From positions 1 through 9,748 of the IMG/VR virus record IMGVR_UViG_2850756110_000010: a stretch of 9,748 bases of DNA; one strand, given 5' to 3'. The position numbers and the translations under genes are program-made. Source of the DNA: a virus. Lineage: Duplodnaviria; Heunggongvirae; Uroviricota; Caudoviricetes. Below the pieces are notes generated by a model. The model was given only the letters and a program-made list of their open reading frames with translations, made no database searches and was not told the origin of the DNA. Below are positions 1 through 9,748 of the stretch, in pieces (position 1 is the stretch's first letter; every line of letters starts with the position of its first letter).

Positions 1-624
1 CTAGCGTGCGCCTGTGCTTAAGCATATCTTAACTACCAGTGCCAGAATTGGGTCCTGACGTTTGCAATCAGCCAGCAATTCAACAATCTGCTCATGGGTA
101 AGCCATGCCATCTCTTTTTCTGCGATGGTGAATTTTCGCATGTTCTCCAGTGGGTTCGGATACGACCATTCGCCCAGACGGGATAGTTCGCTAAAAACAC
201 TACTTAGATAGCTTTGCTCCAGGTTAATGGTGACCGGGCTTGCTCCTTTCTTCCATTTCTCGCTGAAGTAGATCTCGCCTGTCAGGCGTTTATCTCGATA
301 GTGGGCAAACATTTTAGAGGTGAGATCGGTTGCAAGAGGATTGCCCAGAGCGTCAACCATCAACAGCAATTTGTCATAGACATGCTGCCCAGCTGTCAGA
401 GATTTACCATGTAGTTTGAACCATAGCTCAACCACGTCTTTCAGTGTTCGACGATCCACTGATTCACCCAGCCAGGGCTTTGCTTCGGTTTCTTCCATCG
501 TGTGGCGCTCAAAAGCCAGTGCTTCGCCTTTGGTGGCGAATTGTTTACGCACACGACGCCCACTTCGTCCGGCAGGGTAACATTCGCAAAGCCATTTCCC
601 AGTGGTGAGTTTTCGTACTGCCAT
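1..624 (-). CDS. int: P2/186-family tyrosine integrase, N-terminal ~207 aa only; ORF ends in TAG at nt 1-3 before the catalytic domain (likely truncated or pseudogene)
   Basis: Minus-strand ORF starting at ATG 622-624, preceded by GGAGGG about 10 nt upstream. Translation MAVRKLTTGKWLCECYPAGRSGRRVRKQFATKGEALAFE...MAWLTHEQIVELLADCKRQDPILALVVKICLSTGAR resembles the arm-binding and core-binding parts of 186/P2-type integrases (from memory). The 52 codons upstream of M53 in the six-frame ORF do not look integrase-like. Stop codon is at window nt 1-3. Confidence 0.8.
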   Translation of the reverse strand: MAVRKLTTGKWLCECYPAGRSGRRVRKQFATKGEALAFERHTMEETEAKPWLGESVDRRTLKDVVELWFKLHGKSLTAGQHVYDKLLLMVDALGNPLATDLTSKMFAHYRDKRLTGEIYFSEKWKKGASPVTINLEQSYLSSVFSELSRLGEWSYPNPLENMRKFTIAEKEMAWLTHEQIVELLADCKRQDPILALVVKICLSTGAR

Positions 625-897
625 AAAAAATGCCCTCCAGTAGAGAGTATTTTTACTGTATGTATAACCAGTGTCAATGTATGAAATCCTACGACCATAC
701 ATCTCACTGAAGCCATAATGAAGTTGGCTATTCTTTTTGCTATGTGAGCATGTAACTTTTGCGGTTAACCTGCGGCTCATTTTTATTTTAGACGCAGATA
801 TAAAAGCAAAAGTTATCGTGAGTTTTTAGTACAGATTTTTTTGGATTTACTAATAGTTCCATCATTGCAAACAAATTTTCCATCGGAGGTACAGTGA

Positions 898-902
898 GAG
901 AC
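898..902. repeat. IS2 target-site duplication, left copy (GAGAC)
   Basis: GAGAC immediately left of the IS2 terminus at 903; identical 5-mer at 2234-2238. Confidence 0.85.
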
Positions 903-993
903 TAGACTGGCCCCCTGAATCTCCAGACAACCAGTATCACTTAAATAAGTGATAGTCTTAATACTAGTTTTTAGACTAGTCATTGGAGTACAG

Positions 994-1359
994 ATGATTG
1001 ATGTCTTAGGGCCGGAGAAACGCAGACGGCGTACCACACAGGAAAAGATCGCAATTGTTCAGCAGAGCTTTGAACCGGGGATGACGGTCTCCCTCGTTGC
1101 CCGGCAACATGGTGTAGCAGCCAGGCAGTTATTTCTCTGGCGTAAGCAATACCAGGAAGGAAGTCTTACTGCTGTGGCCGCCGGAGAACAGGTTGTTCCT
1201 GCCTCTGAACTTGCTGCCGCCATGAAGCAGATTAAAGAACTCCAGCGCCTGCTCGGCAAGAAAACGATGGAAAATGAACTCCTCAAAGAAGCCGTTGAAT
1301 ATGGACGGGCAAAAAAGTGGATAGCGCACGCGCCCTTATTGCCCGGGGATGGGGAGTAA
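994..1359 (+). CDS. insC: IS2 transposase OrfA (InsC), 121 aa
   Basis: ATG at 994 with GGAG upstream. Translation [40 protein letters not shown]... is the IS2 InsC HTH protein. Confidence 0.93.
1311..1317 (+). other. IS2 programmed -1 ribosomal frameshift heptamer A-AAA-AAG (produces InsCD fusion)
   Basis: AAAAAAG at 1311-1317 lies in the insC frame within the insC/insD overlap; insD is in the -1 frame. Confidence 0.8.
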
Positions 1360-2222
1360 GCTTAGTCAGCCGTTGTCTCCGGGTGTCGCGTGCGCAGTTG
1401 CACGTCATTCTCAGACGAACCGATGACTGGATGGATGGCCGCCGCAGTCGTCACACTGATGATACGGATGTGCTTCTCCGTATACACCATGTTATCGGAG
1501 AGCTGCCCACGTATGGTTATCGTCGGGTATGGGCGCTGCTTCGCAGACAGGCAGAACTTGATGGTATGCCTGCGATCAATGCCAAACGTGTTTACCGGAT
1601 CATGCGCCAGAATGCGCTGTTGCTTGAGCGAAAACCTGCTGTACCGCCATCGAAACGGGCACATACAGGCAGAGTGGCCGTGAAAGAAAGCAATCAGCGA
1701 TGGTGCTCTGACGGGTTCGAGTTCTGCTGTGATAACGGAGAGAGACTGCGTGTCACGTTCGCGCTGGACTGCTGTGATCGTGAGGCACTGCACTGGGCGG
1801 TGACTACCGGCGGCTTCAACAGTGAAACAGTACAGGACGTCATGCTGGGAGCGGTGGAACGCCGCTTCGGCAACGATCTTCCGTCGTCTCCAGTGGAGTG
1901 GCTGACGGATAATGGTTCATGCTACCGGGCTAATGAAACACGCCAGTTCGCCCGGATGTTGGGACTTGAACCGAAGAACACGGCGGTGCGGAGTCCGGAG
2001 AGTAACGGAATAGCAGAGAGCTTCGTGAAAACGATAAAGCGTGACTACATCAGTATCATGCCCAAACCAGACGGGTTAACGGCAGCAAAGAACCTTGCAG
2101 AGGCGTTCGAGCATTATAACGAATGGCATCCGCATAGTGCGCTGGGTTATCGCTCGCCACGGGAATATCTGCGGCAGCGGGCTTGTAATGGGTTAAGTGA
2201 TAACAGATGTCTGGAAATATAG
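1317..2222 (+). CDS. insD: IS2 transposase OrfB (InsD), DDE catalytic domain, 301 codons in the six-frame track
   Basis: ORF in the -1 frame relative to insC. Translation ...[41 protein letters not shown]...DNGSCYRA...[11 protein letters not shown]... is typical of an IS3-family integrase-like DDE transposase. Confidence 0.93.
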
Positions 2223-2233
2223 GGGCAAATCCA

Positions 2234-2238
2234 GAGAC
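2234..2238. repeat. IS2 target-site duplication, right copy (GAGAC)
   Basis: Identical to 898-902, immediately right of the IS2 right terminus at 2233. Confidence 0.85.
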
Positions 2239-2367
2239 ACCTCCCTTTTTCCCAGAACAAGGATAATTTTTAGCATAGGTAGTTAGTGGGCTTAATAACA
2301 AAGAGCATGATAAAGAGCATGATAAAACCACAAAAAATACTTTACCAAGCATAGTTTCCTCCCGGTA

Positions 2368-2937
2368 TTATCTAACATATTTAACTGTTAAACTTATAAT
2401 TTTACCAATTATTTCAATGTCTTCTATCTTACAGTCGAAGGCTCTGTTTCCACCCTCGACGAAGATTCTTCCACCGGGTAAACGAGTAATGTCACGGATC
2501 GTTACTTCGCCATCAATACTTATTACCCATTTACCATCACGTATGTCATCAAATTCTTTATCACAAATAAATTCAGAATTGTTATCTGTGATGACAAAAG
2601 GTTTTTTAAACGTAGAGGGTAGAAATCCCTTATCAAAAATATAAAAACCGTCTTCACGCAAGGCACCATCAGATAATACATATTTAGCAACTTCCATAGT
2701 ATTTGTATTACCTGAAGTTTGCTTTGAACCATGTCCGGTTGTGAGCCAATTAAGCGAGGTGCCCGTTTCAAGGGCGCACTGGATTACCCATTCTGCTGGG
2801 AATGAGTCACGCATGTAGCGTGTGGCGAGTGTACTTTTAGAGATTCCTAAATGATCGCACAACGCCTGTCGAGTCTTGAATCCATAAGCTTCTACCATGC
2901 GCTCTATGGCGCCTCGTCCGCCTTTCTCCAAATTCAT
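2368..2937 (-). CDS. cI: Phage 186-type CI immunity repressor (N-terminal HTH, C-terminal oligomerisation domain), apparently intact
   Basis: ATG at 2935-2937 (minus) with GGAG 5 nt upstream; the six-frame ORF extends 2 codons further to a GTG at 2943. The N-terminus ...AIERMVEAYGFKTRQALCDHLGISKSTLATRYMRDSFPAEWVIQCALETGTSLNWLTTG... resembles the 186 CI HTH domain (from memory). Length about 189 aa, similar to 186 CI. Divergent from the apl/cII genes. Confidence 0.8.
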   Translation of the reverse strand: MNLEKGGRGAIERMVEAYGFKTRQALCDHLGISKSTLATRYMRDSFPAEWVIQCALETGTSLNWLTTGHGSKQTSGNTNTMEVAKYVLSDGALREDGFYIFDKGFLPSTFKKPFVITDNNSEFICDKEFDDIRDGKWVISIDGEVTIRDITRLPGGRIFVEGGNRAFDCKIEDIEIIGKIISLTVKYVR

Positions 2938-3062
2938 GGTCACTCCAAGTGAACTTTTATCTTGGCGATTTCACTGTGCGATCGTATGCTTATGGTGTTC
3001 ACAAAATACAAACGATCCGTATTCGTCCTGATTAATCATCATTAAACGAGGAATGTTGCATC
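2938..3062. promoter_or_regulatory. cI/apl intergenic switch region (putative pR/pL operators)
   Basis: 125-bp AT-rich spacer between divergent cI and apl-like genes. Short inverted repeats: AGTGAAC (2948-2954) with TTCACT (2970-2975) and GTTCAC (2997-3002). No promoter elements were mapped. Confidence 0.4.
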
Positions 3063-3284
3063 ATGAGACCTAACATTTCAATCACTCTTACCACGCCTCA
3101 TGTGACTATTGAACGCTATAGCGAGCTGACAGGGCTATCCATCGATACCATCAATGACATGTTGGCTGATGGACGCCTTATCCGTCACCGTCTGCGCAAA
3201 GATAAAAAACGCGAAAAAGTGATGATCAACATAGCAGCAATGACCGTTGATGCGCTTTCAGAATGCAATCTAAACCTTAATTAG
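3063..3284 (+). CDS. apl: Apl/Cox-like small HTH protein (excisionase and lytic-promoter regulator), 73 aa
   Basis: ATG at 3063 with GAGGAA upstream. First rightward gene opposite cI and immediately upstream of cII, the position of apl in 186. Small basic protein (...[36 protein letters not shown]...). Confidence 0.6.
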
Positions 3285-3316
3285 TTCGATTCTGAAATAC
3301 ATCAGAGGCATTGACC

Positions 3317-3496
3317 ATGTTTGATTACCAAGTTTCCAAACATCCATATTTTGATGAAGCCTGTCGTGCATTTGCACTGCGCCACAATCTGGTGCAACTG
3401 GCAGAACGTGCAGGCATGAATGTGCAGATTCTGCGGAACAAGCTGAACCCAGCTCAGCCTCATTTATTAACCGCACCAGAAATCTGGCTGCTTTGA
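3317..3496 (+). pseudogene. cII: cII (186-type lysogeny establishment activator) truncated after about 59 codons by IS911
   Basis: ATG at 3317 with AGAGG upstream. [59 protein letters not shown] resembles the 186 CII N-terminus (full length about 169 aa, from memory). The stop codon TGA at 3494-3496 is the first three bases of the IS911 left end. Confidence 0.75.
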
Positions 3497-3565
3497 AGTG
3501 GCACACTGAATTTGGCCACCTGAACAGAGGTGATATGCTCACCTCAGAACAACACAGGTGCTCCA

Positions 3566-4734
<1,169 letters not shown>

Positions 4735-4743
4735 CCACTTCAC

Positions 4744-5382
4744 GCCAGAGTTTTATTTGAGATCGCAAACAGGGAGGTGGCTTATTACAACATAAGGCAG
4801 GAGTTTAATTACTCAACTGAAATTACTGATTTCATGAAAGCGGTATATTTCCTGTATCTCAATCGTCACGGTTACCGTGGTTTATGTCGCTATAACAAGA
4901 GCGGGCATTTCAACATTCCCTACGGCAATTATAAAAATCCGTATTTCCCTGAAAAAGAAATTCGCGCATTTGCAGAAAAAGCCCAGCGAGCAACGTTTAT
5001 CTGCGCCAGCTTTGATGAAACGCTGGCGATGTTGAAGGCGGGGGATGTGGTGTATTGCGATCCACCGTATGACGGTACGTTTTCCGGCTATCACACTGAT
5101 GGTTTCACTGAAGATGACCAGTATCACCTAGCATCCGTTCTTGAACATCGGTCATCAGAAGGACATCCGGTCATTGTTTCTAACAGTGACACATCCCTGA
5201 TCCGTTCGCTGTATTGCAATTTTACTCACCACTATATCAAGGTAAAACGCAGCATCGGTGTGGCAGCTGGCGAGGGTAAATCAGCAACAGAAATCATTGC
5301 TGTTTCCGGGCCGCGCTGCTGGGTGGGATTTGATTATTCGCGTGGCGTGGATAGTTCTGCCGTGTACGGAGTACGTGCATGA
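4744..5382 (+). pseudogene. dam: Dam-family N6-adenine DNA methyltransferase, 5'-truncated by IS911 (AdoMet-binding motif I missing, DPPY motif present)
   Basis: Open frame runs from the IS911 right end to TGA at 5380-5382. ...[48 protein letters not shown]...[10 protein letters not shown]...VIVSNSDT... resembles E. coli Dam from about residue 75 onward (from memory). No N-terminal FxGxG region and no native start codon. Confidence 0.85.
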
Positions 5383-5487
5383 GCCATGCCGATATGAACA
5401 ACTGCTGCGGCTTTAACGAGGCTGCCGCAGCGTTCTCATGGAACAGCCCGAAAAAGGCCATTAACCCTTATCTGGACCCGGCGGAAG

Positions 5488-6855
5488 TTGCGCCGCGAGG
5501 CACTGAGTGATCAGGTCTGGGAGCGTTATTTTTTTTATGAATCACGTGATCCTGTCCAGCACGAAATGGAGCAGGATAAGCTCATTAGCCGGGCAAAGCT
5601 GGCGCATGAGCAGCAGCGTTTTAATCCGGATATGGTCATTCTGGCGGACGTCAACGCCCAGCCTTCCCATATCAGCAAGCCGCTGATGCAACGTATTGAA
5701 TACTTCAGCAGCCTGGGCAGGCCAAAGGCTTATTCCCGCTATTTACGTGAGACGATTAAGCCATGTCTGGAACGACTGGAGCATGTACGCGACAGCCAGC
5801 TATCTGCATCTTTTCGTTTTATGGCAAGCCATGTAGGGCTGGACGGCCTGCTGATTCTGCCTGAAATGAGTCAGGATCAGGTGAAACGCCTGTCTACCCT
5901 TGTCGCTGCGCATATGAGCATGTGCCTTGATGCAGCTTGTGGTGATTTGTATGCCACCGATGACGTTAAGCCAGAAGAAATCCGCAAGACATGGGAAAAG
6001 GTGGCAGCGGAAACCCTGCGTCTGGATGTCATCCCGCCTGCGTTTGAGCAACTCCGTCGGAAAAGAAACCGCCGTAAACCCGTGCCCTATGAACTCATTC
6101 CGGGTTCGCTGGCGCGTATGTTGTGCGCCGACTGGTGGTACCGGAAATTATGGAAAATGCGTTGCGAATGGCGGGAAGAGCAGTTGCGTGCTGTCTGCCT
6201 GGTCAGCAAAAAAGCATCTCCCTATGTCAGCTATGAAGCCGTGATGCATAAACGTGAGCAGCGCCGCAAGTCATTGGAGTTTTTCCGTTCTCATGAACTG
6301 GTGAACGAAGAGGGCGACACGCTGGATATGGAAGACGTGGTAAACGCCAGCAGCAGCAACCCGGCGCACCGCCGCAATGAGATGATGGCCTGTGTTAAAG
6401 GTCTGGAGCTTATCGCGGAAATGCGCGGTGACTGCGCCGTTTTCTACACCATTACCTGTCCGTCACGTTTCCATTCCACGCTCAATAACGGCAGACCAAA
6501 CCCAACCTGGACAAATGCGACGGTAAGACAAAGCAGCGATTATCTGGTCGGCATGTTTGCTGCATTTCGTAAGGCGATGCACAAAGCCGGGTTGCGCTGG
6601 TATGGCGTGCGGGTGGCTGAGCCGCATCATGACGGTACAGTTCACTGGCACCTGTTGTGTTTTATGCGCAAAAAAGACCGCCGCGCCATTACTGCATTGT
6701 TGCGTAAGTTTGCCATCCGTGAAGACCGCGAGGAACTGGGTAATAACACTGGTCCACGCTTTAAATATGAGCTGATAAACCCGCGCAAAGGAACGCCGAC
6801 AAGCTACATCGCGAAATACATCAGTAAGAACATTGACGGTAAGCGTACAGCCTGA
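5488..6855 (+). pseudogene. P2/186 gpA-like rolling-circle replication initiator, C-terminally truncated by the IS66-family element; N-terminal start uncertain (possible frameshift)
   Basis: Translation contains ...[15 protein letters not shown]... (HUH-type metal motif) and ...[12 protein letters not shown]... (catalytic tyrosine region) typical of P2 gpA. The last 4 codons and the stop are IS terminus sequence beginning GTAAGCG at 6839. Only a TTG start at 5488; an ATG ORF at 5394-5507 lies in a neighbouring frame. Confidence 0.75.
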
Positions 6856-6930
6856 ACCGTCTGGTCAGAATCTGACGAATTAGACAAAGTGGTGTCCACC
6901 AAATAAGTAGTGGGAACCAAAGTGTCAGAT

Positions 6931-7311
6931 ATGCAGAAAAATGTGAATCCCGGCAGGCGAAAAGGCTGCCCTAATTATCCTCCCGAATTTAAACAGCAGC
7001 TCGTTGCTGCCTCCTGTGAACCCGGGATATCCATCTCAAAACTTGCTCTTGAAAATGGCATTAACGCCAATCTGTTGTTCAAATGGCGACAACAATGGCG
7101 CGAGGGAAAGCTGCTATTACCTTCTTCAGAGAGCCCCCAGCTACTTCCTGTGACTCTCGATGCAGCTGCCGAACAGCCAGAATCGCTCGCAGAGGATCCG
7201 GAAACCCTCAGTATCAGCTGTGAGGTAACGTTCCGGCACGGGACGCTCCGCTTCAATGGCAATGTCAGCGAAAAGCTCCTGACTCTGCTGATACAGGAAC
7301 TGAAGCGATGA
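6931..7311 (+). CDS. IS66-family accessory protein Orf1 (TnpA-like)
   Basis: ATG at 6931; the six-frame ORF extends to a GTG at 6910. ...PEFKQQLVAASCEPGISISKLALENGINANLLFKWRQQW... is an HTH protein typical of IS66 orf1. Confidence 0.8.
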   Translation: MQKNVNPGRRKGCPNYPPEFKQQLVAASCEPGISISKLALENGINANLLFKWRQQWREGKLLLPSSESPQLLPVTLDAAAEQPESLAEDPETLSISCEVTFRHGTLRFNGNVSEKLLTLLIQELKR

Positions 7312-7655
7312 TCCCGTTACCTTCCGGGACCAAAATTTGGCTGGTTGCCGGTATCACCGATATGAGAAATGGCTTCAACGGCCTGGCGGCAAAGGTGCAG
7401 ACGACGCTGAAAGACGATCCGATGTCAGGTCACGTTTTTATCTTCCGTGGGCGTAATGGCAGTCAGGTAAAGCTCCTCTGGTCTACCGGCGATGGACTGT
7501 GTCTGCTGACCAAACGGCTGGAGCGCGGCCGCTTCGCCTGGCCGTCAGCCCGGGATGGCAAAGTGTTCCTCACACCGGCACAGCTGGCGATGCTCCTTGA
7601 AGGTATCGACTGGCGGCAGCCTAAAAGACTGCTTACGTCCCTGACTATGTTGTAA
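7308..7655 (+). CDS. IS66-family Orf2 (the IS66 accessory TnpB, not the IS200/IS605 TnpB)
   Basis: ATG overlaps the orf1 stop (ATGA). MIPLPSGTKIWLVAGITDMRNGFNGLAAKVQ...HVFIFRGRNGSQVKLLWSTGDGLCLLTKRLERGRFAWP is a hallmark IS66 Orf2 sequence. Confidence 0.88.
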   Translation: MIPLPSGTKIWLVAGITDMRNGFNGLAAKVQTTLKDDPMSGHVFIFRGRNGSQVKLLWSTGDGLCLLTKRLERGRFAWPSARDGKVFLTPAQLAMLLEGIDWRQPKRLLTSLTML

Positions 7656-7703
7656 GCCTCTTTATCCTGGTCGACGCTGAATGAGCCTGGTAATATACCC
7701 GGT

Positions 7704-9242
7704 ATGAGCAGCTCACTTCCTGACGATATCAATGCACTGAAACGTCTCCTTGCCGAACAGGAGGCGCTGAACCGTGCCCTGCTGGAAAAGCTGAACGAGC
7801 GTGAACGCGAAATAGACCATCTGCAGGCACAGCTGGATAAGCTGCGCCGGATGAACTTCGGCAGCCGCTCCGAAAAAGTCTCCCGTCGTATCGCACAGAT
7901 GGAAGCTGACCTGAAGGCACTTCAGAAAGAAAGTGATACCCTTACCGGTCGGGTTGACGACCCGGCCGTGCAGCGCCCGCTGCGTCAAACCCGCACCCGC
8001 AAACCGTTCCCCGAATCACTCCCCCGCGATGAAAAACGGCTGCTGCCGGCAGCGTCATGCTGCCCGGAATGTGGAGGCTCACTGAGCTATCCGGGTGAGG
8101 ATGCCGCCGAACAGCTGGAGTTGATGCGCAGCGTCTTCCGGGTTATCCGGACTGTACGTGAAAAGCATGCCTGTACTCAGTGCGATGCCATCGTGCAGGC
8201 CCCCGCGCCTTCACGGCCCATCGAGCGGGGTATCGCAGGACCGGGGCTGCTGGCCCGCGTGCTGATCTCAAAGTATGCAGAGCACACCCCGCTGTACCGC
8301 CAGTCTGAAATGTACGGCCGCCAGGGCGTGGAGCTGAGTCGTTCACTGCTGTCGGGCTGGGTGGATGCATGCTGCCGGCTACTGTCACCGCTGGAAGAAG
8401 CGCTTCAGGACTATGTGCTGACTGACGGTAAGCTCCATGCTGATGACACGCCTGTCCCGGTGCTGTTGCCAGGCAATAAGAAAACGAAGACCGGGCGGTT
8501 ATGGACCTACGTTCGTGACGACCGTAACGCCGGGTCAACGCTGGCGCCGGCGGTGTGGTTCGCTTACAGCCCGGACAGAAAAGGCATCCATCCGCAGACC
8601 CATCTTGCGGGGTTCAGTGGTGTACTGCAGGCGGATGCATACGCCGGGTTCAACGAGCTGTACCGGGATGGCCGGATAACGGAAGCCGCCTGTTGGGCTC
8701 ACGCCCGCCGTAAAATCCACGATGTGCACGTTCGCACCCCGTCAGCCCTGACGGAGGAAGCGCTGAAACGGATCGGCGAACTGTACGCCATCGAGGCAGA
8801 GATAAGGGGAATGACGGCGGAGCAGCGCCTTGCCGAACGTCAGTTGAAAACGAAACCGCTGCTGAAATCCCTGGAAAGCTGGCTGCGTGAAAAGATGAAA
8901 ACCCTGTCGCGACACTCAGAACTGGCGAAAGCGTTCGCATACGCCCTGAACCAGTGGCCGGCGCTGACGTACTATGCAGATGATGGCTGGGCTGAGGCGG
9001 ACAATAACATCGCTGAAAATGCGTTGCGGATGGTCAGTCTGGGCCGCAAAAACTACCTGTTCTTCGGTTCGGATCATGGAGGAGAGCGGGGAGCGCTGCT
9101 GTACAGCCTGATCGGGACGTGCAAACTGAACGGAGTGGAGCCAGAAAGCTACCTCCGCTATGTACTTGACGTCATAGCCGACTGGCCGATAAACCGGGTC
9201 GGCGAACTGCTCCCCTGGCGCGTAGCACTGCCGACTGAATAA
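7704..9242 (+). CDS. IS66-family transposase Orf3 (TnpC), 512 aa
   Basis: N-terminal coiled-coil/leucine zipper, zinc-finger-like CCPECGG...CTQCD, and a large DDE-type catalytic region. Ends 37 bp before the right inverted repeat. Confidence 0.88.
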
Positions 9243-9309
9243 CACATCCCCGTCAATACGGTTCTTGCTGCACGCTTACACTTAACTTTATGACATCATA
9301 CTGCTTTTA

Positions 9310-9346
9310 GAAGTGAAAAATTAAAAGGGAGAGACTCCGCTCTCCC
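9310..9346 (-). terminator. Rho-independent terminator for the 9368-9748 minus-strand gene
   Basis: Hairpin GGGAGAG-actccg-CTCTCCC (9327-9346), followed on the minus strand by TTTTAATTTTTCAC, about 20 nt downstream of the stop codon. Confidence 0.65.
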
Positions 9347-9367
9347 ATTATTGGCTATTTTGCAGGG

Positions 9368-9748
9368 TTACTGCGTGGTACCGTCGGTTTTGGTATCGAC
9401 ATCATTATTGATGCCATCACCGGTTTGTACCTTTTTATTGATATCCGGACATCGACCATCTTTGCACATGGTGTTCTTGTGCTCTTCATCTTTGGTCATT
9501 CCGTCATTGTTCATTGAAGAACCATCCGAATGCAGCATTGTGCCGCCAGAACCGGTATTTACCCCGTTATTGTCGACGTTATTTGGCGCGACATTTTCAC
9601 GGGCGTCAGGGGCTACCTGGCCCGCATCAGTTGCGGCGTTTGCCTGGCCGTTATTAGTTTGCGCTCCGCTATCGGCAGCCAGTGCGGCACCGCTGGCAAG
9701 GCTTAGAGTGGCAGTCAGAAATAATGTGGCCAGTTTTGTCATTTTCAT
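9368..9748 (-). CDS. Secreted or periplasmic low-complexity Gly/Asn/Asp-rich protein with Sec signal peptide (126 aa), function unknown; probably host chromosomal
   Basis: ATG at 9746-9748 at the window edge. [24 protein letters not shown]|ADSG is a classic signal peptide with an AxA site. The mature part is rich in N/G/D/T with one Cys pair (CKDGRC). Confidence 0.7.

Follow-up and report, generated by a model that had tools for sequence, protein, structure and literature searches.

Mismatched ISEc22 flanks in a P2/186-like prophage point to recombination between insertion sequence copies

In Agrobacterium pAt15955, homologous recombination was deduced from an IS66 insertion sequence (IS) whose 8-bp flanks disagreed with each other but matched the outer flanks of two parental copies (PMC6778807). 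IS-associated inversions are also very frequent in Shigella genomes (PMC8072062), while our literature search on ISEc22 in Shigella returned nothing relevant. Here, we describe a junction at a copy of ISEc22, an IS66-family element, that interrupts the replication endonuclease gene gpA of a P2/186-like prophage. The junction lies in a stretch of 9,748 bp (positions 1 to 9,748 of the IMG/VR virus record IMGVR_UViG_2850756110_000010), hereafter the window. The initial annotation had read this element as the right-hand deletion boundary of the prophage. We find it very probable that the junction is instead a hybrid ISEc22, formed by homologous recombination between ISEc22 copies in which the right flank was exchanged, and that the prophage has been split rather than truncated. 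Nothing is lost at the window junction.

Flanks and reciprocal junctions of the window ISEc22

ISEc22 occupies positions 6839–9279 of the window on the forward strand at its full length of 2441 bp, from GTAAGCG at 6839 to CGCTTAC ending at 9279. Megablast and Pfam searches identified the IS66-family element that had been claimed at 6831–9287 as this ISEc22 together with its two flanking 8-mers. The left flank, CATTGACG (6831–6838), is half of a target-site duplication, labelled a, that is found on both sides of the same IS in sister genomes. The right flank, ACTTAACT (9280–9287), is half of a second duplication, b, which belongs to the chromosomal zitB-ybgS spacer. The 8-bp duplication of the IS66 family is therefore missing from the window copy at the boundaries 6839 and 9279, as had been recognized from the sequence.

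The sequence on either side of the element also agrees with the first description. The IS cuts gpA after YISKNIDG, with the frame reading ...AAC ATT GAC G/GT AAG CGT ACA GCC TGA across the junction, such that NIDG is followed by KRTA and a stop codon. These last four codons and the stop of the truncated gene, gpA′, are all encoded by IS sequence. The right flank, described as leading into a terminator and a non-phage gene, begins an 88-bp spacer that holds the intrinsic terminator of ybgS (9346–9327, minus strand; GGGAGAG-loop-CTCTCCC followed by a T run). The gene beyond it is the core chromosomal gene ybgS itself (9368–9748, minus strand; 126 amino acids (aa); Pfam YbgS, E=3e-61), the start of a relocated ybgS-aroG-gpmA-gal-modF segment.

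Using protein look-up of the gpA′-IS fusion open reading frame (ORF), we found two assemblies that contain the window at 100% identity, GCA_900618175.1 (contig UYIT01000003.1, 2.19 Mb) and GCA_002950095.1 (CP026834.1, 4.68 Mb). In both, the genes to the left are mdfA-ybjH-ybjI-ybjJ-rcdA-int and those to the right are ybgS-aroG-gpmA-galMKTE-modF. Both sides of the window are in the K-12 forward orientation, yet ybgS (b0753) lies ~100 kb before rcdA (ybjK, b0846) on the K-12 map. The sequence from 9280 onward is core chromosome, and ybgS has zitB and aroG beside it in 5426/5426 E. coli genomes. [quoted passage not shown] Neither junction of the window ISEc22 copy was present in the E. coli RefSeq complete genomes (megablast, 5,426 genomes). 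The gpA-IS junction had no exact match in the GTDB species representatives, window-type genomes evidently not being among the representatives scanned.

Look-up of the gpA 3′ ORF (P0061) revealed the other half of the gene in the same genome. In CP026834.1 (locus L035), the gpA 3′ part, beginning GGCGTGG..., directly follows a second ISEc22 that is flanked by TCTGAGAC on the left and CATTGACG on the right. It continues, from 4335585 onward, into genes for DinI, AAA/HNH, portal, terminase, scaffold, capsid and lysis proteins. The window copy (4305833–4308273) and the second copy (4333144–4335584) are both on the forward strand, and the distance between these two direct repeats is 24,870 bp. Other copies were found by look-up of TnpC, the transposase encoded by the window element, and two of these are also hybrids. 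One connects nadA-pnuC-zitB and ACTTAACT through ISEc22 to GATTTTGC and phage tail-fibre genes (L015), and the other connects pgl-ipaH-DUF4376′ and GATTTTGC to TCTGAGAC (L017).

Labelling GATTTTGC as c and TCTGAGAC as d, the four ISEc22 copies close a cycle of half-duplications: a/b (CATTGACG/ACTTAACT), b/c (ACTTAACT/GATTTTGC), c/d (GATTTTGC/TCTGAGAC) and d/a (TCTGAGAC/CATTGACG). The d/a junction, with TCTGAGAC on its left and CATTGACG and the gpA 3′ part on its right, had been predicted from the chain before L035 was located. The search for further IS66 copies and for the reciprocal junction, suggested at the outset, yielded L015, L017 and L035 and completed the duplication chain. All four rejoined half-sites occur uninterrupted in other genomes. 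Site a is empty in the intact gpA of a uropathogenic E. coli (UPEC) prophage (L002), and site b in zitB-ybgS spacers (L001, L024–L032). Site c is a DUF4376 tail-fibre-assembly gene, present in one piece in eight E. coli genomes (99.3–99.7% identity, 100% coverage), and site d is the insB gene of IS1, seen in five IS1 copies.

Sister genomes retain the simple insertion in gpA. The same ISEc22 is located at the same gpA nucleotide, with perfect CATTGACG on both sides (a/a), at eight loci (L004, L006, L007, L033, L034, L036, L038 and L039) in six genomes (CP026807.1, CP026823.1, CP026825.1, PSSQ01000001.1, CP026840.1 and CP026828.1). The remainder of gpA and the late genes directly follow ISEc22 in all six. 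The first three of these sisters also share with the window an IS911 junction and a 65-bp gpA deletion; the other three are more distant and lack the 65-bp deletion. Because all six relatives keep perfect CATTGACG and a contiguous gpA, the entry of ISEc22 into gpA was an ordinary transposition and the flank mismatch in the window is secondary.

CP026823.1 additionally displays a second arrangement of the same flanks. Alongside its a/a copy in gpA (L006), it holds a c/b copy in which pgl-ipaH-DUF4376′ and GATTTTGC are joined to ACTTAACT and ybgS (L030), and the two copies are in inverted orientation ~104 kb apart. In UYIT01, 108 kb separate the a/b copy from the c/d copy, and the phage tail region is followed by zitB. 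This 108-kb spacing is as expected if the ~104-kb interval of the sister arrangement were inverted.

Recombination between ISEc22 copies and its alternatives

We propose that ISEc22 first inserted into gpA of the P2/186-like prophage beside rcdA, generating the 8-bp duplication CATTGACG. Recombination with near-identical ISEc22 copies would then have swapped the sequence to the right of the gpA copy. The window copy would have kept its left flank, gpA′, and gained its right flank from a copy in the zitB-ybgS spacer that carried the duplication ACTTAACT. As the net outcome, a 24.9-kb chromosomal segment now lies between the gpA halves, bracketed by two direct ISEc22 copies and consisting of ybgS-aroG-gpmA-galMKTE-modF together with remnants of phage and IS elements.

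Each homologous exchange between two IS copies would amount to a swap of right flanks, and a cycle of four would need three such swaps. Hence, there were at least three flank exchanges overall, two of them since the sister arrangement. The first, of b with c, would have inverted the ybgS...phage interval. This swap would be older than the split of the two arrangements, because CP026823.1 has a/a together with c/b, in inverted copies. From the sister arrangement we infer one of two paths. Either the ~104-kb interval from c/b to a/a was inverted, followed by an inversion between the resulting c/a copy and the d/d copy, or the IS-bracketed ybgS...IS1′ segment was excised as a circle and re-integrated at the gpA copy. 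When worked through, both paths produce the identical final order, Z-IS-T-IS-R-IS-G-IS-L, which matches the observed order. We also infer that the exchanges were RecA-type homologous events rather than transposase-driven.

Several points weigh against this reconstruction. The four junctions come from two assemblies, with a/b in both, b/c and c/d in GCA_900618175.1 and d/a in CP026834.1, and the sequence retrieved covers the relocated segment except for ~9 kb near its middle. The simple-insertion states b/b, c/c and d/d were not seen in any genome examined, and no crossover point could be mapped from the single-nucleotide polymorphisms (SNPs) among ISEc22 copies, which are few and mosaic. Furthermore, for the b-c exchange on its own, intramolecular replicative transposition in one step would explain the same signature equally well.

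We compared the recombination model with other explanations of the junction. Deletion and inter-element recombination had both been put forward as causes, and of the two only recombination is supported. A deletion, made by ISEc22 itself or by recombination of two direct copies, would have removed distal gpA, the late region and the chromosome up to ybgS. It is what the window on its own appears to display, since gpA ends at the IS, the duplication is missing and non-phage DNA comes next. The absence of distal gpA and the late region, as initially reported, does hold within the window but not for the genome, as both are kept in CP026834.1, where they follow another ISEc22 at a distance of 24,870 bp to the right. 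The chromosomal genes zitB, pnuC and nadA are also kept, next to another ISEc22 copy (L015). Moreover, the K-12 map places ybgS upstream of rcdA, in the same orientation. Since a deletion joins a lower to a higher coordinate, a simple deletion cannot make the window junction, and with the gpA 3′ part and late genes at L035 the idea of a right-hand deletion boundary has to be abandoned. We consider deletion exceedingly improbable. An assembly or scaffolding artefact, in which gpA′ was joined to ybgS across the 2.4-kb repeat, might be suspected from short-read contigs that end at the IS edge (L009–L012) and from an extra 10-kb contig in the NCTC assembly (L008) with a different join at IS2. A gpA 3′ portion beyond the element elsewhere in the assembly had been named as a sign of such an artefact. 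This portion was found and refutes the deletion, but the artefact does not follow, as two separately deposited assemblies hold the identical 9748-bp window on contigs of 2.19 and 4.68 Mb. The four hybrid junctions make a self-consistent closed cycle, the 104–108 kb spacing agrees with the sister genome, and long reads readily cross a repeat of 2.4 kb, all of which make a false join very improbable.

A composite transposon would provide a different route to the same structure. Here, an ISEc22-(ybgS...modF...)-ISEc22 unit of 29.75 kb would have entered gpA with a CATTGACG duplication, and the relatives with a single IS would have arisen by later recombination between the two copies. Two direct ISEc22 copies 24,870 bp apart do bracket the segment, the outer 8-mers are both CATTGACG, and in the sister arrangement, judged from L030, L017 and L035, direct ISEc22 copies would bracket the same segment at its other location. 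However, all other lineages examined, outgroups without the 65-bp gpA deletion among them, have the single-IS a/a state, and a 25-kb duplicate would have to persist and then resolve independently several times. The donor site keeps exactly one IS, c/d (L017), which fits conservative recombination and not cut-and-paste, and the total IS count is conserved. Since every relative has a lone IS with the same duplication at the target, and the donor keeps one IS, recombination is favoured over transposition of the unit. An origin as a composite transposon is thus very improbable, and it is just as improbable that the 29.75-kb unit, in which ISEc22 copies enclose ybgS, aroG, gpmA, galMKTE, modF and further sequence between CATTGACG flanks, is a functional transposon today. 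If it were, it would have carried core metabolic genes into a prophage by transposition and would be able to transpose once more or to travel on a phage or plasmid. We also considered a tandem duplication of the ~100-kb ybgS...gpA′ interval, which fits the topology of the junction, and rejected it, as the full chain shows each flank exactly once.

A missing target duplication beside a truncated prophage gene does not imply deletion; here, the other half of the gene is 25 kb away. The locus provides a clean worked example in which 8-bp duplications act as barcodes that let IS-IS recombination be followed to the base. Such barcodes should help to trace rearrangements of Shigella genomes and to assess assemblies.

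The ISEc22 element and the decayed prophage

The window element is complete and recently active, and it does not differ structurally from ISEc22. Copies annotated as 'IS66-like element ISEc22' among the 5,426 E. coli genomes match window positions 6839–9279/80 at 99.5–99.8% identity (megablast). Copies with perfect 8-bp duplications in related genomes are exactly 2441 bp in five out of five cases. Terminal inverted repeats of the IS66 family start with 5′-GTAAGCG. In the window copy, the left repeat is GTAAGCGTACAGCCTGAACCGT (6839–6860) and the reverse complement of the right repeat (9258–9279) is GTAAGCGTGCAGCAAGAACCGT, with matches at 19 of 22 positions. These repeats, the full length and three ORFs uphold the earlier view that the IS is intact.

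The three genes all lie on the forward strand. The first, tnpA (6910–7311), encodes an accessory helix-turn-helix protein (Pfam HTH_Tnp_1) of 133 aa from a GTG start, or 126 aa if called from the ATG at 6931. It overlaps by ATGA with tnpB (7308–7655), which encodes an IS66 Orf2-like accessory protein of 115 aa (Pfam TnpB_IS66, E=1.6e-38). The DDE transposase of 512 aa is encoded by tnpC (7704–9242; Pfam DDE_Tnp_IS66, E=7e-107) and has, in addition, the zinc finger and leucine zipper of the N-terminal region (Pfam zf-IS66 and LZ_Tnp_IS66) and the C-terminal domain DDE_Tnp_IS66_C. These lengths (133/115/512 aa) and the layout equal those in a RefSeq ISEc22 copy. A protein identical to the window TnpC is encoded at no fewer than six places (at least six) on one 2.19-Mb contig. 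Because the same insertion in the sisters and five other copies carry 8-bp duplications, the missing duplication at the window ISEc22 is secondary and is no argument against membership of ISEc22 or the IS66 family.

ISEc22 copies in loci L003–L039 differ at only 17 alignment columns, comprising SNPs and some single-base indels. The variants are shared in a mosaic fashion, for example 7417 A/C, 8300/8411 T and 9008 C/T, which suggests gene conversion among the copies. The 7417 A/C variant switches TnpB residue 37 between D and A. Sequencing error may account for single-base deletions of ISEc22 in some of the PacBio records.

The surroundings of other copies have also been altered. The parental ISEc22 insertion with the duplication TCTGAGAC entered IS1 insB (L035 7075–7264, L017 7577–8133), and the halves of this nested IS1/ISEc22 are now on opposite sides of the rearrangement. 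The copy that keeps the zitB side (L015 5103–5135) lies upstream of zitB, 25 bp from its start codon, and has cut this gene off from its native upstream sequence, so that zitB now borders on the left IS end. In CP026832.1 (L037; 6780–9705), a sister record from S. dysenteriae 14 ATCC 49346 (PMC10132075), dam′, gpA′ and the left part of ISEc22 with tnpA and tnpB are missing. IS911 there directly precedes the remainder of tnpC, which is followed by the gpA 3′ part. This gap is a real deletion at the same ISEc22 in another lineage.

The prophage itself is a remnant. In window order, the 5′ part of int (1–780, minus strand) is followed by IS2, a CI-type repressor gene (2368–2943, minus strand), an apl/cox-like ORF, a truncated cII, IS911, a 5′-truncated dam, gpA′, ISEc22 and ybgS. 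The truncated gpA′ (5488–6855, forward strand; Pfam Phage_GPA, E=5e-128) aligns at 99.8% to the intact 804-aa gpA gene of the UPEC prophage (L002 20809–22162). This reference prophage is integrated beside rcdA, carries the full late region after gpA and is 99.8% identical to the left arm of the window. The native gpA ATG at 5379 yields an ORF of only 43 aa owing to the frameshifting 65-bp deletion, which is located near the 5′ end (window about 5486–5495) between two copies of GTTGCGCCG (microhomology). This deletion is common to CP026807.1, CP026823.1 and CP026825.1 and absent from PSSQ01000001.1, CP026840.1 and CP026828.1, and so is a useful lineage marker. The gpA of the window prophage is dead several times over.

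Decay extends beyond gpA. The integrase is split (window 1–780; L003 4085–5137) into a 207-aa Int_N part and a catalytic fragment of 84–103 aa, compared with 350 aa when intact, and the remnant could not excise even before the IS events. IS911 (3494–4742, 1249 bp) lacks a 3-bp duplication, with CTT on the left and CGC on the right. Relative to the intact UPEC prophage it replaces ~1.84 kb, containing the 3′ two-thirds of cII, fil, DUF5347, DUF2732, a traR-like gene and the first ~218 bp of dam; this gap is a genuine IS-associated deletion. The closest sister genomes carry an IS1 inside IS911 that the window does not have. In the relocated late region, the portal gene is split into ORFs of 133 and 198 aa (L033–L035, 14104–15135) in all genomes seen, and the late region is decaying too.

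IS2 (903–2233) is a simple insertion flanked by the 5-bp duplication GAGAC (898–902 and 2234–2238) and lies between int and the gene for the CI repressor. The closest sister genomes lack IS2 at this position and have a small YdcA-like ORF instead. IS2 is also the joining point in the extra contig of the NCTC assembly (L008; GCA_900618175.1, UYIT01000008.1, 10,146 bp), in which virulence-plasmid sequence with ospB and phoN2 (99.5% to pINV-type plasmids) is connected to the stretch from CI to gpA′-ISEc22. This stretch differs from the window by 0 mismatches and 7 indels. The contig is either a chimera of low coverage or derives from a subpopulation whose chromosome took up the invasion plasmid by recombination at IS2.

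Comparison with known systems

Both the type of event and the element are already known, and the window represents an ordinary IS-driven rearrangement in Shigella, in a prophage that was already defective. In nucleotide sequence (99.5–99.8% over 2441 bp), in its three genes and in its GTAAGCG termini the window element is the same as the known ISEc22, whose copies in sister genomes have 8-bp duplications. Unlike ISEc22 at simple insertions, the window copy has mismatched flanks, as would a recombinant of two insertions. The prophage resembles phage 186/P2-like prophages in the Phage_GPA domain of gpA′ and in its CI-type repressor, CII, dam and int. Relative to an intact 186/P2-like gene A, the window gpA has a 65-bp frameshift and an IS after codon ~520 of 804, and its halves are 29.75 kb apart.

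Comparison with the rearrangements described in Shigella indicates a host of the same type, with ipaH near other ISEc22 copies of the window-bearing contig, a sister record (CP026832) from S. dysenteriae 14, many copies of IS1, IS2, IS911 and IS66-family elements, and breakpoints at IS. Whereas that work used synteny blocks (PMC8072062), the duplication barcodes resolve single events to the base. The diagnostic is the same as for the IS66 element of pAt15955, where the 8-mer at each end matches a different parental copy (PMC6778807). In pAt15955, however, the copies were direct repeats and the result was a 270-kb deletion, whereas the window junction belongs to conservative inversions or relocation among four copies, in a closed cycle with no loss at the junction.

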